This document shows positions 26,305 to 31,841 of a stretch of DNA of 36,805 bases, one piece after another. The notes under the pieces are model-generated. The model did no database searches. It worked only from the letters and a program-made list of their open reading frames with translations, and was not told the origin of the DNA. Source of the stretch: Bdellovibrionota bacterium (lineage in GTDB: Bacteria > Bdellovibrionota_C > UBA2361 > JBGSMV01). Location of the stretch: positions 1 through 36,805 of the forward strand of contig JBIKWF010000034.1 of assembly GCA_044356455.1 (NCBI GenBank), read 5' to 3'. Each line of letters opens with the position of its first letter. The first letter of the stretch is position 1. A program made the translations under genes and the position numbers.

Positions 26305-27246
26305 TTAATTGTTCCGCGGATCAAATGCTACTTCATCCGCTTGCTTCCAAAGTTTAATGATCTTCTGGGCAATGGCCCCTATCTCTTCCTTGGTAGCTGG
26401 GGCTTTTTCCCCCAATTGAAGTACCTTCTCCTCTATCCTCTTCATCGCTTCCTGGCTAATTGCTCCAAGCATAAAGAGCTCAAGGATTTTCTCAGGGGTT
26501 ATCTCACTGGGCGCCAACCTACTGATTTCAGATAATATTCGCTCTTCTTCCTCTTCATCGAGCCTGTCAGGCTGAGGCGTATTCGCAAAAAAGTAAAGAA
26601 TAGTTTGCACGAGAGCCGACTGCGAAAATTTCGCACGATTGGCAAACTGAGAAGTCGCCTGCGCAAATTCTACTGCTGCATCTGGGTCAAGGCCGACTGC
26701 ATTCTCCGGAGTAGTAGAAGGAGCCGCGCCAAGATTTGGGCTCAGTGTTCCACTATTCGCTAACTCTTCATTAGGATCGACCTCGGTCCCCACCGAAACA
26801 CTGGGATCTCCCCCCGCTACTCGATCCCCAATTTTTGCCGCGCGCTGGCTCTGTTGAGTTGCCGCGGCCTGTTCATCAGATAGATTCCCCGCGTCTTCTT
26901 GAACCTTTGCCTGCTCTCGCGCCTCTTGGCGCTGCTGCTCCCTGACTTTCGCTTCTCTTTCTCTCTGTCTGCGCTGCGCGCGCTGTTCTCTTGCTTCAGC
27001 TGAACGAGAAGAGCGAGATGAGGTTCTATCTGAAGTGCGCTGCTGAGTTCCGGCGACTCTTCCCGGCCTAATCCGGGCGCCTTCATCGCGCTGCTGCTCG
27101 CGCACAGGTCGGTCTGGGCCACGCTCGGTCGTGGGCTTTTCAAGCCCATGAACCTTTAGCTGCCCCAGGTCAGAGGACTGCTGTTCTTCCTTTTTCGGAG
27201 AACCGCCTGGCCGGAGTAACCGACCTGTTGAAGTTTTCTGCTCCAT
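26305..27246 (-). CDS. Hypothetical protein, charged low-complexity N-terminus and helical C-terminus
   Basis: 313 aa intact ORF; R/E/Q-rich coiled-coil segment. Confidence 0.7.
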   Translation of the reverse strand: MEQKTSTGRLLRPGGSPKKEEQQSSDLGQLKVHGLEKPTTERGPDRPVREQQRDEGARIRPGRVAGTQQRTSDRTSSRSSRSAEAREQRAQRRQREREAKVREQQRQEAREQAKVQEDAGNLSDEQAAATQQSQRAAKIGDRVAGGDPSVSVGTEVDPNEELANSGTLSPNLGAAPSTTPENAVGLDPDAAVEFAQATSQFANRAKFSQSALVQTILYFFANTPQPDRLDEEEEERILSEISRLAPSEITPEKILELFMLGAISQEAMKRIEEKVLQLGEKAPATKEEIGAIAQKIIKLWKQADEVAFDPRNN

Positions 27247-27621
27247 GAACCCCTATACCTAGAAGCATCCGCAAAAAGAGCTAAATTAAGCCCTCTGCCG
27301 AGGGTACTGCCCTTAAGGAGGCGCTCACGCTCCCCCGCAAATACTCAGGCTAAGTTATGAAGAAAACCGAGACTTTTGTGCGTTTGAAACTAAAAATCTT
27401 GTAAAGATAATGGTACCACAGGGCTTCAGGGCCAACCAATGTATACCTTCAGAACTACTGGCCCCTGAGGCTAACTATTTGTTCTCACACAACTTCTAAT
27501 TACCTCAAAGCTTTGCTAGGGTCAGCTCGCATGGCGGCGAGGAGCCTTAGCGACTCTAGAAGGGGCATTTTACCCCCCCCCTATAGGCCGGCTAAGCCTT
27601 TGAGAGTGCCGAGTAAAATTC

Positions 27622-29370
27622 GTGGAGAGAGAAACTGTGCGGTCAGAACTTGTTACAGCGCTTACTGAAGCACTTGCAAAGGCTACGGGTTGGGAGCTCT
27701 CACAAGTCCAATCGGCTCTTTCCCTTCCGAAGGACTTTGCTCACGGAGACTATGCCTTCCCCTGTTTCGGTCTCGCCAAAGAGCGCAAAATGCCCCCCCC
27801 CGCCTGTGCAGAAGAGCTTGCGAAGACCCTTGTTTTGCCTGCTGGCATAGAACGCTCACAGGTAGTCGGCCCCTATCTCAACTTTTTTGTAGAGCGAAAG
27901 ACTTTTGCCAAAGAAGTGCTCGCTAGGATTTTGTCGGGCGGATCTCCTCTTAAGGTGGCTGCCCAGAAAAAGAAGTTTATTGTCGAATACTCTAGCCCCA
28001 ACATCGCCAAACCCTTTCACATAGGGCATTTGCGAACCACGCTCATTGGGCATTCGATAGATAGAATTCTTCGCTCGCTTGGGCATGAGGTGATTAGCGT
28101 CAATCACTTGGGCGACTGGGGCACTCAGTTCGGATTTGTGTATGCAGGGTGCAAACTCTGGGGCCGTCCTGCAGAAGAGAATATTTTTGAACTGGTAGAT
28201 ATGTATGTGCGCGCGTCAGCCCTCAGGCGTGCCCAAGAAGAGAAAACCGTTCCTGCCGAAGATCTCGACAAGCCTGACGTTAATCAGATGGCGCGGGACT
28301 ATTTCTTGAAGCTTGAGGCAGACGACCCTGAGGCGACCGAGTTCTGGCAGTGGTGCCTTGATATCTCTCTTAAATACCTAAAGGACCTTTATCAGCGCCT
28401 CGGTGTGCATTTTGACCACTACACTGGCGAGTCGTTTTACCGTAAGAAGCTTGGCGCCGTTGAGAAAATGCTCCGAGAAAGTGGTATCCTCGAAGATTCG
28501 CGCGGCGCGCTTGGCGTGGACTTAGGTAAGCAACTTGGTTTTGCGCGCGTGTTCACTGAGGATCTTGCCACGGCAGACTACCGCCATAAAACGTATGCCG
28601 CAGACAAGATTCTCTACGTTGTCGGCGCACCTCAGAGCCAATACTTCAAACAACTGATTGAAATCTTCAAGCGCATGAAGCACCCCGTAGGGGACACCAT
28701 GGTCCACGTTTCCTATGGCAATGTACCGGGCATTAGCACGCGCAAAAGCTCTGGGAAGGATGATAGGATTTGGTTGCATTCGCTCTTAGACGAGGCGCAC
28801 GAGCGGGCGCTCGAAGCCTATCGCAGCCAGGTGGTGAAAAAGGCCGATGACGGCACTACTCCCGTCCCCGCGGTGGCGGACGAGGAGACTCTCGCAGAGG
28901 CGGTCGGCTTGGGCGCGATATTCTTCAACTATCTTTGCCGCACCAACGTAAAGGAGTTCAACTTCTCTTGGGAAGAGGCACTCAGCTTCCAAGGAGATAC
29001 AGGGCCCTACGTCCAATATGCGGTTGCCCGAATTAACAGCATCGAAGCGAAAGCAGCCCAAACGGGCATTACCCCACTCGCAACCTGTGATACCAGCGCC
29101 CTTACTGACGATTCCGCCCACCAGGTAATGTCTCTCCTGAGCCGTTTCCAAGACGTCGTAGAACTATCTGCCGAGGACTATGAACCCAATCATGTAGCCT
29201 CCTATGTGCTCGATTTGGCAAAGTCCTTTTCCGGAGCTTATCGGAACCTTAGAGTCATCGGCGAACCCCCCGAGGTTGCAGCGGCTCGCTTAACTCTTTT
29301 TAGAGCGGTAAAAGATACGCTCAAGGTCGGACTTGGGCTCATCGGGGTTCCCGTGGTGGAGCGGATGTGA
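27622..29370 (+). CDS. argS: Arginine--tRNA ligase (apparent short in-frame deletion)
   Basis: HGDYA, GPYLNF, EYSSPNIAKPFHIGHLR, HLGDWGTQFG, GESFY, GDTGPYVQYA..R, C-terminal ERM. Confidence 0.96.
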   Translation: MERETVRSELVTALTEALAKATGWELSQVQSALSLPKDFAHGDYAFPCFGLAKERKMPPPACAEELAKTLVLPAGIERSQVVGPYLNFFVERKTFAKEVLARILSGGSPLKVAAQKKKFIVEYSSPNIAKPFHIGHLRTTLIGHSIDRILRSLGHEVISVNHLGDWGTQFGFVYAGCKLWGRPAEENIFELVDMYVRASALRRAQEEKTVPAEDLDKPDVNQMARDYFLKLEADDPEATEFWQWCLDISLKYLKDLYQRLGVHFDHYTGESFYRKKLGAVEKMLRESGILEDSRGALGVDLGKQLGFARVFTEDLATADYRHKTYAADKILYVVGAPQSQYFKQLIEIFKRMKHPVGDTMVHVSYGNVPGISTRKSSGKDDRIWLHSLLDEAHERALEAYRSQVVKKADDGTTPVPAVADEETLAEAVGLGAIFFNYLCRTNVKEFNFSWEEALSFQGDTGPYVQYAVARINSIEAKAAQTGITPLATCDTSALTDDSAHQVMSLLSRFQDVVELSAEDYEPNHVASYVLDLAKSFSGAYRNLRVIGEPPEVAAARLTLFRAVKDTLKVGLGLIGVPVVERM

Positions 29371-29445
29371 TACGAGTGCGCCCGGGCGGACTTCTTCGAA
29401 GCAGTCCGCCGGAGCGTGAGAGCGAGAGGGAGCCGTCAATAAGGT

Positions 29446-29506
29446 CCTTCTTAGCGGTCTTAGTGTTCTTAGTGGTTGTTTTTATAAACTACTAAGACCA
29501 CTAAGG
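29446..29506. repeat. 9-bp-periodic hairpin, CTTAGTG variant
   Basis: CTTAGCGGT-CTTAGTGTT-CTTAGTGGT, AT-rich loop, ACTACTAAG-ACCACTAAG. Confidence 0.8.
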
Positions 29507-29530
29507 GGTTTTTTGAAAATTGATTGATTA

Positions 29531-29604
29531 CGGGGTGTAGCTCAGCCTGGTAGAGCGCACGGTTCGGGACCGTGAGGTCGAAGGTTCAAATCCTTTCACC
29601 CCGA
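29531..29604 (+). tRNA. tRNA-Pro(CGG), CCA not encoded
   Basis: CGGGGTGTAGCTCAGCCTGGTAGAGC...TTCGGGA...GGTTCAAATCC...CACCCCGA. Confidence 0.97.
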
Positions 29605-29750
29605 TTTAAAAATCACCGCAAGTTCTCTCTTTGGTGTTGGCCTTTCCTGGCCTGTCACACCCCCGGTAGAGGCAAGTCCCTTTTGAACCAGACGCCATCA
29701 ATCGCCAAGTTACCCCTCACAAACCGTGAATACCGAGTCCAATCAAACCG

Positions 29751-30403: not shown

Positions 30404-30985
30404 CTATTGAACGATGAACTCAGTGAAGTACACGTTCGTCACCACTGGCTCTTCATAGGCCAAAGCCTCATTAATACCCTCGACGAGTTCTTCCTTAAGT
30501 CTGTCTTTTCCCTCACCAGAAAGAACCTCAGATGACTTTTTCGAGACGAATACGCGAATGATGGCGTCGCGAAGCATTCCCTCTCTCTCCTTCATGCCGT
30601 GCGGTAGCGCCTGGGAATCGCCGCCACCTCCTCCGCCTCCTGCCGCACCACCTCCGTGCCCACTGCCACCTTCAGCAGAATGCGCTGCAAGAACTCGGTG
30701 CAGAATCGTTTCATCGTATTCAATAAGGATCACCGCTTTAAGAAAGGACGTTTGCTCAGAGAGATTCACAAGAAAGGGATCCATTTTTGCGAGCTTAAGC
30801 ACAGGCTCTACGTGCTCTTCTTTCTTCTTGTCCTCTTTCTTTTCGCCGCCCATGAGGGCCATGGCCGCGCCTCCTCCACCGAGCAGGAGCACGACTACCG
30901 CAATGATGATGACAAGCATCTTCTTGCTGCCCTTTTTAGGAGCTTCGCCTTCGCCTTCTTTCTTTTCTTCTTCTGCCTTGGCCAT
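30404..30985 (-). CDS. fliL: Flagellar basal-body-associated protein FliL
   Basis: Single TM then LGGGG; FLVNL, LRDAII, EGKDRLKEEL..IN, VYFTEFIVQ; GAGG upstream of ATG 30985. Confidence 0.92.
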   Translation of the reverse strand: MAKAEEEKKEGEGEAPKKGSKKMLVIIIAVVVLLLGGGGAAMALMGGEKKEDKKKEEHVEPVLKLAKMDPFLVNLSEQTSFLKAVILIEYDETILHRVLAAHSAEGGSGHGGGAAGGGGGGGDSQALPHGMKEREGMLRDAIIRVFVSKKSSEVLSGEGKDRLKEELVEGINEALAYEEPVVTNVYFTEFIVQ

Positions 30986-31088
30986 ATATCTACCTCGCGC
31001 ATTTCTGCTGCATTGAGTACGCAGACCCCAATCACAGAAGGAAAGTCGGCAGCTTAGTGAATAAAGTTGAACGGAACCGGGTGAGGCC

Positions 31089-31841
31089 TTAGCCCTGGCC
31101 CAAGAGTGCAATCTGGCCTAAGAGAAATGCCAAGGCCTGCTCGACCCGCAGCACGCGAGATCCCAAAGAAATGCTTTGAAATCCACGACTTAGCAGCAAG
31201 AGCCGCTCCGCCTCCGACCACCCGGCCTCGGGTCCAAGGGCCACCATAGTGGAAGCCCCTGGCACAAGGTGAATTTTTGATACCGAGCTCTCAGGAGATG
31301 CGAGCGTATCGGCAAAAATGGCTGCGCCGTGACCATGAGGAGGGACTGGTTCAGCAAAAGGGCGTACCTCTGCCAGGCATTTCTTTAAGTGAGAATGCAC
31401 GGCGACTTTCGGAAGACGCCACTCACCACCCTGCTCAAGTCCTTTCACAAGAAAGCGTTGCAACTCCGCGGGTTCGAAAACAGTGGACGATTGATAACTC
31501 TTCTCGCCTTGTTCTGAGGCGACAAAATGCAGCTCGGAAACCCCCAACGTAGCACAGAGCTCAAGCACTTTTTTTACCGTCTGAGGCCTAGGAAGCCCAA
31601 TTAGACAGCGAGCTGCGCAGGGAGCAGCTGGGGCAGAGGAAACAGTAAAGTCGAGCGAAACTTCTTGAGGGGTAACCGATAACACCGTGCCAGTGCCGCG
31701 CCCACGATTCTCAGCAACCACTGCGAGAGAGAGACCGGCCTCTACTTTGTGCTGGTCACGCGCATAGGCAGCTCGCTCTCCGACAAGCACTGCTCGGCCT
31801 TCCGAAGAGCACTCTGCTGAATAGAGGAAAAGGTAATTCAC
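31089..31841 (-). CDS. rsmE: 16S rRNA m3U1498 methyltransferase
   Basis: GLPRPQ, ATLGV, LEQG, ALGPEAGW...E, SLGSRVLRVEQA SPOUT knot. Confidence 0.9.
   Translation of the reverse strand: MNYLFLYSAECSSEGRAVLVGERAAYARDQHKVEAGLSLAVVAENRGRGTGTVLSVTPQEVSLDFTVSSAPAAPCAARCLIGLPRPQTVKKVLELCATLGVSELHFVASEQGEKSYQSSTVFEPAELQRFLVKGLEQGGEWRLPKVAVHSHLKKCLAEVRPFAEPVPPHGHGAAIFADTLASPESSVSKIHLVPGASTMVALGPEAGWSEAERLLLLSRGFQSISLGSRVLRVEQALAFLLGQIALLGQG

Follow-up and report, generated by a model that had tools for sequence, protein, structure and literature searches.

The argS gene of the window, by which we mean the whole 36,805-nt stretch of DNA analysed here, has lost exactly nine codons in frame and with them the tyrosine of the arginine pocket, and this lesion is private to one metagenome contig and most likely without biological standing. 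On the whole, our analysis indicates that the working enzyme of the population is probably the canonical intact arginine--tRNA ligase (ArgRS), the gap being either an assembly-level error or a young, unfixed and impaired allele. Taken separately, an assembly-level error is a quite real possibility, and a real but unfixed, impaired allele is a possibility too. A new kind of ArgRS pocket is unlikely.

The argS gene and its nine-codon gap

The gene lies at 27622..29370 on the forward strand and forms an open frame of 582 codons from its first GTG. Its three domains come in the expected order, each nearly full length: the N-terminal ArgRS domain (PF03485, residues 9-90, 27646..27891 +, E 2.8e-14), the class I catalytic domain (PF00750, residues 103-450, 27928..28971 +, E 9.2e-63, profile positions 5-349 of 349) and the DALR anticodon-binding domain (PF05746, residues 464-582, 29011..29367 +, E 4.7e-28). 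Against the TIGR00456 equivalog the protein scores 398.3 bits, the cut-off being 261.65, and it spans profile positions 3-569 of 569. As read from the translation and the alignments, the catalytic domain holds the HIGH motif (H133-H136), the pocket acid E122 and the GISTRK motif (370-375). HIGH is the signature of class I synthetases, and here it stands in P-F-H-I-G-H-L-R, with H133, G135 and H136 falling in near-invariant columns. The nearest solved relative by sequence, among 12 distinct PDB sequences matched with HMMER, is yeast ArgRS (1bs2_A, E 3e-85), and an AlphaFold2 model of the window protein (mean pLDDT 93.3) matches the fold of 1f7u_A with a TM of 0.86 (E 2.4e-38). Judged by these sequence features, the gene is an ordinary ArgRS. 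Its start is placed differently by the gene callers (window 27622-27790), at 526 aa in the JGI call, 577 aa in the NCBI call and 582 aa for the longest GTG frame; the JGI call begins at Met residue 57 and thus cuts into the N-terminal domain.

The assembly, consisting of 216 contigs and 93.29% complete, holds one ArgRS copy, with TIGR00456 giving one hit among 7 scored candidates, PF00750 one among 3, and the DNA itself one copy. The original prediction had proposed a search for a second argS; none was found in this assembly by TIGR00456, PF00750 or the DNA search, and the two family searches were both positive in 14 of 14 control genomes. The argS of the window is essential and single copy. 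A very improbable alternative is that it is a dying copy, with an intact second argS in the unassembled 7% or collapsed in the assembly; the incompleteness and the number of contigs leave room for this, and the order to which the window belongs holds two ArgRS types, both of them present in the relative G035. However, the searches recover the window copy only, the site of argS in the same genus is assembled here (C43) and occupied by other genes, and the window gene shows no decay apart from the gap.

At the site in question the frame reads ...GKQLGFARVFTEDLATADYRHKTYAADK... (translation of 27622..29370 +). Around the joint the protein is G-F-A-R-V-F-T-E-D-L-A-T-A-D-Y-R, with the DNA TTC ACT GAG GAT CTT GCC at 28552-28569, and exactly 27 nt, that is the nine codons of D-G-R-S-L-Y-I-T-R, are absent in frame between E313 and D314. 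The joint (28560..28564 +) lies within or adjoins GGAT (28560-28563), and its placement is ambiguous by 4 bases. The 12 bases at its left, TTC ACT GAG GAT (F311-D314, 28552..28563 +), are an imperfect copy (8/12) of ATC ACC CGG GAT (I-T-R-D), with which the 27-nt segment ends in the intact allele of another metagenome, run X2. In the HMMER alignment with yeast ArgRS (1bs2), the query has a 9-column gap exactly at this site, opposite yeast Q-K-S-D-G-T-T-L-Y (Q339-Y347); Tyr347 and Asp351, which we take to be the pocket residues of the yeast enzyme, agree in numbering with this alignment. When 29 ArgRS frames from related genomes are aligned with it in MAFFT, the window alone shows a 9-column gap. 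The earlier statement that the gene lacks a DGxxxYxTRD segment, with about nine codons missing in frame, is borne out by both alignments, and the number is exactly nine (27 nt) when the gene is aligned to 23 orthologues.

Function and conservation of the lost residues

The role of the lost residues can be discussed from a study of E. coli ArgRS (PMC3956977, Protein Cell 2014). In the part of that source used here, D118, Y313 and D317 bind the guanidinium group, Y313 by a hydrogen bond, and R324 holds D118 in place; Y313 stands just after insertion domain 2, for which the range 258-311 is stated. The mutations D118A and D317A abolished arginine binding, and with Y313A the reduction was no more than two-fold, accompanied by a large enthalpy loss, the mutant measurements in this part being of binding and not of aminoacylation. 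In the window, the first pocket acid is E122, which stands in I-V-E-Y-S-S-P-N and aligns with yeast E148 and E. coli D118. By its spacing, D314, directly before L-A-T-A-D-Y-R321, appears to be the second pocket Asp, and R321 the Arg, as in E. coli D317...R324. The pocket Tyr (E. coli Y313), which normally precedes the second Asp by four residues, is deleted, and V310 holds that spacing from D314; the Tyr is present at this position in 23 of 23 orthologues and in 119 of 119 database relatives. Thus the loss of the Tyr, as claimed from the DNA alone, is confirmed by the alignment with orthologues, with one Asp kept. The accompanying claim that the segment lines the arginine pocket holds in part, since arginine is contacted by the Tyr (Y313) and the retained Asp (D317) but not by the other residues, as far as the same part of PMC3956977 describes them.

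An AlphaFold2 model of the intact relative P0003 (mean pLDDT 94.2) has a strand F-A-R-V-F at 302-306, a loop at 307-313 and a helix from Y314, and the nine lost residues are predicted to make up most of the loop and the first turn of the Tyr-bearing helix. In the model of the window protein the helix begins at T312, two positions ahead of D314, and pLDDT is 92-94 around the joint. Such models describe the lost piece, and their confidence says little on the effect of the deletion and is not evidence of function.

All of the 40 related genomes searched besides the window's own were matched at E <= 0.001, and close orthologues, 48-68% identical, are found in 23 of them. Where the window has E-D, these 23 without exception read (E/D/P)-D-G-R-S-L-Y-(I/L)-(T/M/A)-R-D. 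Seven of the nine lost columns are identical across all 23, showing that the gap is not a chance variation, and the six distant ArgRS frames in the alignment also carry residues at the gap; private gaps in the 23 orthologues themselves reach 3 residues at most. In the protein database, a search with residues 200-440, drawing on 6391 candidates, gave 371 proteins at E <= 0.001. The alignment was made from 119 of the best 120 of these 371, with P0002 left out as the window's own gene call, and none of the 119 relatives (50-86% identical) is gapped in any of the nine columns. The residues D, G, L, Y, T and R of the segment are at least 90% conserved in the 120-sequence alignment, and this conservation, together with that among the orthologues, argues for strong selection on the segment. 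Among the database relatives, those around 55% identical bear the source names 'Deltaproteobacteria bacterium' and 'Oligoflexia bacterium'.

The gap is borne by two proteins only, P0002 and P0123, both of them gene calls on the window's own 36,805-nt contig. The 90%-identity cluster of the window protein has three members, of which two are the JGI and NCBI gene calls on this contig and the third is a 198-residue C-terminal fragment too short to include the site. The next cluster (P0003/P0125/P0126, 85-86% identical) has the same flanks, ...GKQLGFARVFTE and DLATADYRH.TYAADKILYVVGAPQSQYFKQLIEIFKRM, with DGRSLYITR between them. A search for short near-identical protein fragments across the site gave 3 hits among 79 candidates, all 49-59% identical and none near-identical, and a degenerate-pattern scan of metagenome contigs for D-L-A-T-A-D-Y-R-H, which may omit the records of the window's own genome or of a very near one, gave one locus, that of the intact 85% relative. 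Altogether, the deleted form is seen in no source besides the window's own contig. It is scarcely credible, then, that the window protein belongs to a lineage-specific ArgRS subfamily or paralogue that never had the segment or has long been without it. The gap itself speaks for such a subfamily, and nothing more, whereas the segment is missing in 0 of the 23 orthologues and 0 of the 119 database relatives, even relatives of 68% (same genus) and 85-86% identity having it, and run X2 holds an intact allele whose downstream DNA is identical. An ArgRS with an altered pocket, one of the readings first offered, is for the same reasons disfavoured as a feature of the lineage.

Apart from the gap, the gene is healthy. 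Agreement of at least 22 of the 23 orthologues marks 131 columns, and the window protein differs at 10 of them, of which 7 are the gap; the other three departures (I152, A333 and Q346) are within the range for other orthologues (0-11), and the intact 85% relative carries the same residues in these columns. Between the window and this relative, 234 of 266 aligned codons specify the same residue, with pN 0.081 and pS 0.86 (saturated), giving a ratio of 0.094, and judging from these codons the gene was under purifying selection until the recent past. No compensating change is found near the pocket, the 25 residues on each side of the joint being identical to those of the intact 85% relative. As a control on the same contig, ProRS and PheT show no private gaps against 19 and 17 orthologues respectively, which indicates that the gap in argS is a single event and not general assembly decay. 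Nothing in the sequence points to a long existence without the segment. The rest of the gene had been called intact at the outset, and we agree, as its domains, motifs and near-invariant columns are normal.

An intact allele and the origin of the joint

The stretch is held by 24 public runs, all labelled lake water metagenome. We placed the Logan contigs of four runs (X1-X4) on window 27600-29400. In X2, a lake-water metagenome from another study, a contig of 411 nt corresponds to window 28560-28907 with 348 of 348 bases identical; the nearest other known DNA (L032) is only about 75% identical. This contig has 63 further letters before 28560, the last 30 of which are GGAAGACGGCCGGTCGCTATACATCACCCG, and in the frame of the window these 30 letters read E-D-G-R-S-L-Y-I-T-R, followed by D-L-A, which is the intact form. 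An intact allele thus exists in the same population. Since the undeleted form here continues into downstream DNA identical to that of the window, the species has not fixed the deletion, which is no trait of the lineage. As the loss is confined to this assembly and the population has not fixed it, the working enzyme is likely an ordinary intact ArgRS.

The joint coincides with a change in relatedness to the X2 allele. At 28557-28563 the X2 contig has GGAAGAC where the window has TGAGGAT, with 3 of 7 bases differing, whereas 0 of 348 differ on the right side. All three differences are at the third base of a codon, and both of those whose codon is seen in full leave the amino acid unchanged. This shows that the left side of the window represents a genuine, diverged haplotype rather than read noise, and that the deleted form is not a plain derivative of the allele in X2. 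In all of X1-X4, window 28552-28559 is covered by no contig, and such holes in contig cover carry no weight. In X1 (0.96 of sampled words), contigs fit 28396-28551 and 28560-29400 without other letters and nothing lies between, the hole itself being uninformative; X3 is without cover from 28473 to 28637 and X4 from 28525 to 28818, and these holes are uninformative as well. No weight was given to contig depths differing around the joint, the graph scenarios weighed being a two-allele bubble, clipped tips and random drop-outs. Further upstream, at window 28100-28134, much deeper short contigs of other organisms fit about 34 bases with 2-3 other letters each (X1, X3 and X4); the place encodes a conserved N-H-L-G-D-W-G-T-Q, and these fits are cross-matching of the motif, not a feature of the genome.

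As for its origin, the gap probably arose by mispairing of two imperfect 12-base repeats (F-T-E-D / I-T-R-D), which are 27 nt apart and share GGAT at the joint. Pairing of the two copies out of register would remove exactly nine codons and leave F-T-E-D-L as seen. The GAT microhomology suspected from the DNA is found, since GAT is present at both ends of the 27 nt in the same-genus gene, and GGAT is common to GAG GAT of the window and CGG GAT of the intact allele. Within each of 24 intact relatives, the corresponding 12-mers agree at 4-9 of their 12 bases. In the cell, replication slippage or out-of-register recombination would give a young allele, present in no more than a part of the population and, by prediction, impaired; in vitro or in silico, the same joint could be made during library preparation, or in the sequencing and assembly of a low-depth strain mixture. 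A De Bruijn-graph assembler as a rule makes a joint only where reads span it. Given this, and given that an in-frame, repeat-flanked loss resembles a biological deletion, a pure software artefact is not the obvious reading. An assembler may, in its gap-closing step, connect two graph tips whose short overlap is imperfect, a possibility to which no weight was given. In favour of a real molecule there are the in-frame loss, the short flanking repeat and the genuine haplotype of the left flank. Against an impaired allele as the explanation, a real allele abundant enough to assemble needs living carriers, which fits ill with its being impaired.

Alternatively, an established strain would live on the shortened ArgRS as its sole and adequately working enzyme, without the pocket Tyr and the loop before it, which we consider doubtful. 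Such a strain would be in keeping with the frame being kept and all other motifs being intact, with E122, D314 and R321 standing at the positions of E. coli D118, D317 and R324, with the failure to find a second argS in the assembly, and with the genuine diverged haplotype left of the joint. Furthermore, the lost residues are by prediction confined to the loop 307-313 and the first helix turn, with the helix of the window modelled at pLDDT 92-94, and E. coli Y313A had only two-fold weaker arginine binding in the part of PMC3956977 used here; by analogy, the confident model and this still-binding mutant together make a working shortened enzyme possible. However, the strong selection on the segment and the want of any compensating change near the pocket relative to the intact 85% relative speak against it, as does the finding that the deleted form occurs in no second source while the sole independent contig reaching the site is intact, and the gene in question is single-copy and essential. 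The evidence favours the ordinary reading, an assembly error or a passing allele, over a living strain with a shortened enzyme. That a free-living lake bacterium lives on a single ArgRS without the conserved pocket loop and Tyr, its allele having come from an out-of-register joint of two diverged haplotypes at a 4-base match, is in our estimate unlikely.

If the gap comes from faulty assembly or from an allele that is only passing, the lesson is one of data quality alone: a public metagenome-assembled genome holds a damaged essential gene, which annotation pipelines accepted as a normal ArgRS. Should a strain truly depend on the shortened enzyme, nature would have made an experiment on the arginine pocket, in which a conserved Tyr and the loop preceding it, present in 119 of 119 database relatives, would be dispensable for life, and this would be relevant to the study of aminoacyl-tRNA synthetase specificity.

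Gene neighbourhood and comparison with known enzymes

The neighbours of argS in the window are housekeeping genes, namely those for ProRS, the PheRS beta chain, an RNA methyltransferase, FliL, FKBP and a DUF922 protein. The gene is placed differently here (window 27250-29750) and in the same-genus genome G001 (C33, L036), where it lies between a KsgA-like gene and a methyltransferase gene; in the window's own assembly (C43:14097-18141, L080), the KsgA-like and methyltransferase genes flank a 798-aa frame without Pfam hit, an HTH_17 protein and an alpha/beta hydrolase. DUF922 and FliL flank argS also in L012, and FliL does so in L007. The position in the window is probably the older one, and a move or new acquisition of the window argS, considered as bearing on the deletion, was rejected on the adjacency of these genes in L012 and L007. 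Two further frames in this region may be mentioned. At window 26305-27246 (-) there is a 313-aa frame of no Pfam family, whose first half is rich in E, R, Q and K and whose C-terminal half alone is weakly alike (32% identity) to a frame at the syntenic place in G001. The FliL-domain protein at window 30404-31111 (-) has PF03748 at residues 109-235, after a long N-terminal extension, and a glycine run GGSGHGGGAAGGGGGGGD inside the domain region.

The two ArgRS types in the order are a short, window-like type, present in 24 of 41 genomes (the window's included), and distant longer frames of 598-782 aa. In G003 and G004, which represent two genera of the window's own family, the distant type alone is found, with best E of 4e-18 and 1.4e-17 respectively, and G035 has both types. 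Such a distribution points to the replacement of one ArgRS type by the other in this group.

Compared with other known proteins, the window protein shares a DALR-type C-terminal part with NrtL, the ArgS-related anticodon-binding protein (NF045898), at 68.4 bits; this is far under the cut-off of 340 and the full catalytic domain is present, so that membership of this family was rejected. The metagenomic ArgRS of the P0003/P0125/P0126 cluster are of the same length class (583-591 aa), and their identity to the window over 25 residues on each side of the joint includes FTE and DLATADYRH; they keep DGRSLYITR, encoded as GAC GGA CGA TCG CTC TAT ATC ACC CGC in L032 (a 4502-nt contig), which the window lacks. 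With canonical ArgRS (nearest solved structures yeast 1BS2/1F7U and E. coli 4OBY/5YYM), the window protein has in common the three-domain build, HIGH, the pocket acid E122, one pocket Asp, R321 and the GISTRK loop, and it differs by the absence of nine residues, among them the pocket Tyr (E. coli Y313). Among the E. coli point mutants Y313A, D317A, D118A and R324A of PMC3956977, Y313A is like the window protein in being without the pocket Tyr and keeping both acids and the acid-holding Arg; in the mutant, however, one side chain is lost, whereas in the window a whole loop and a helical turn are predicted to be lost.
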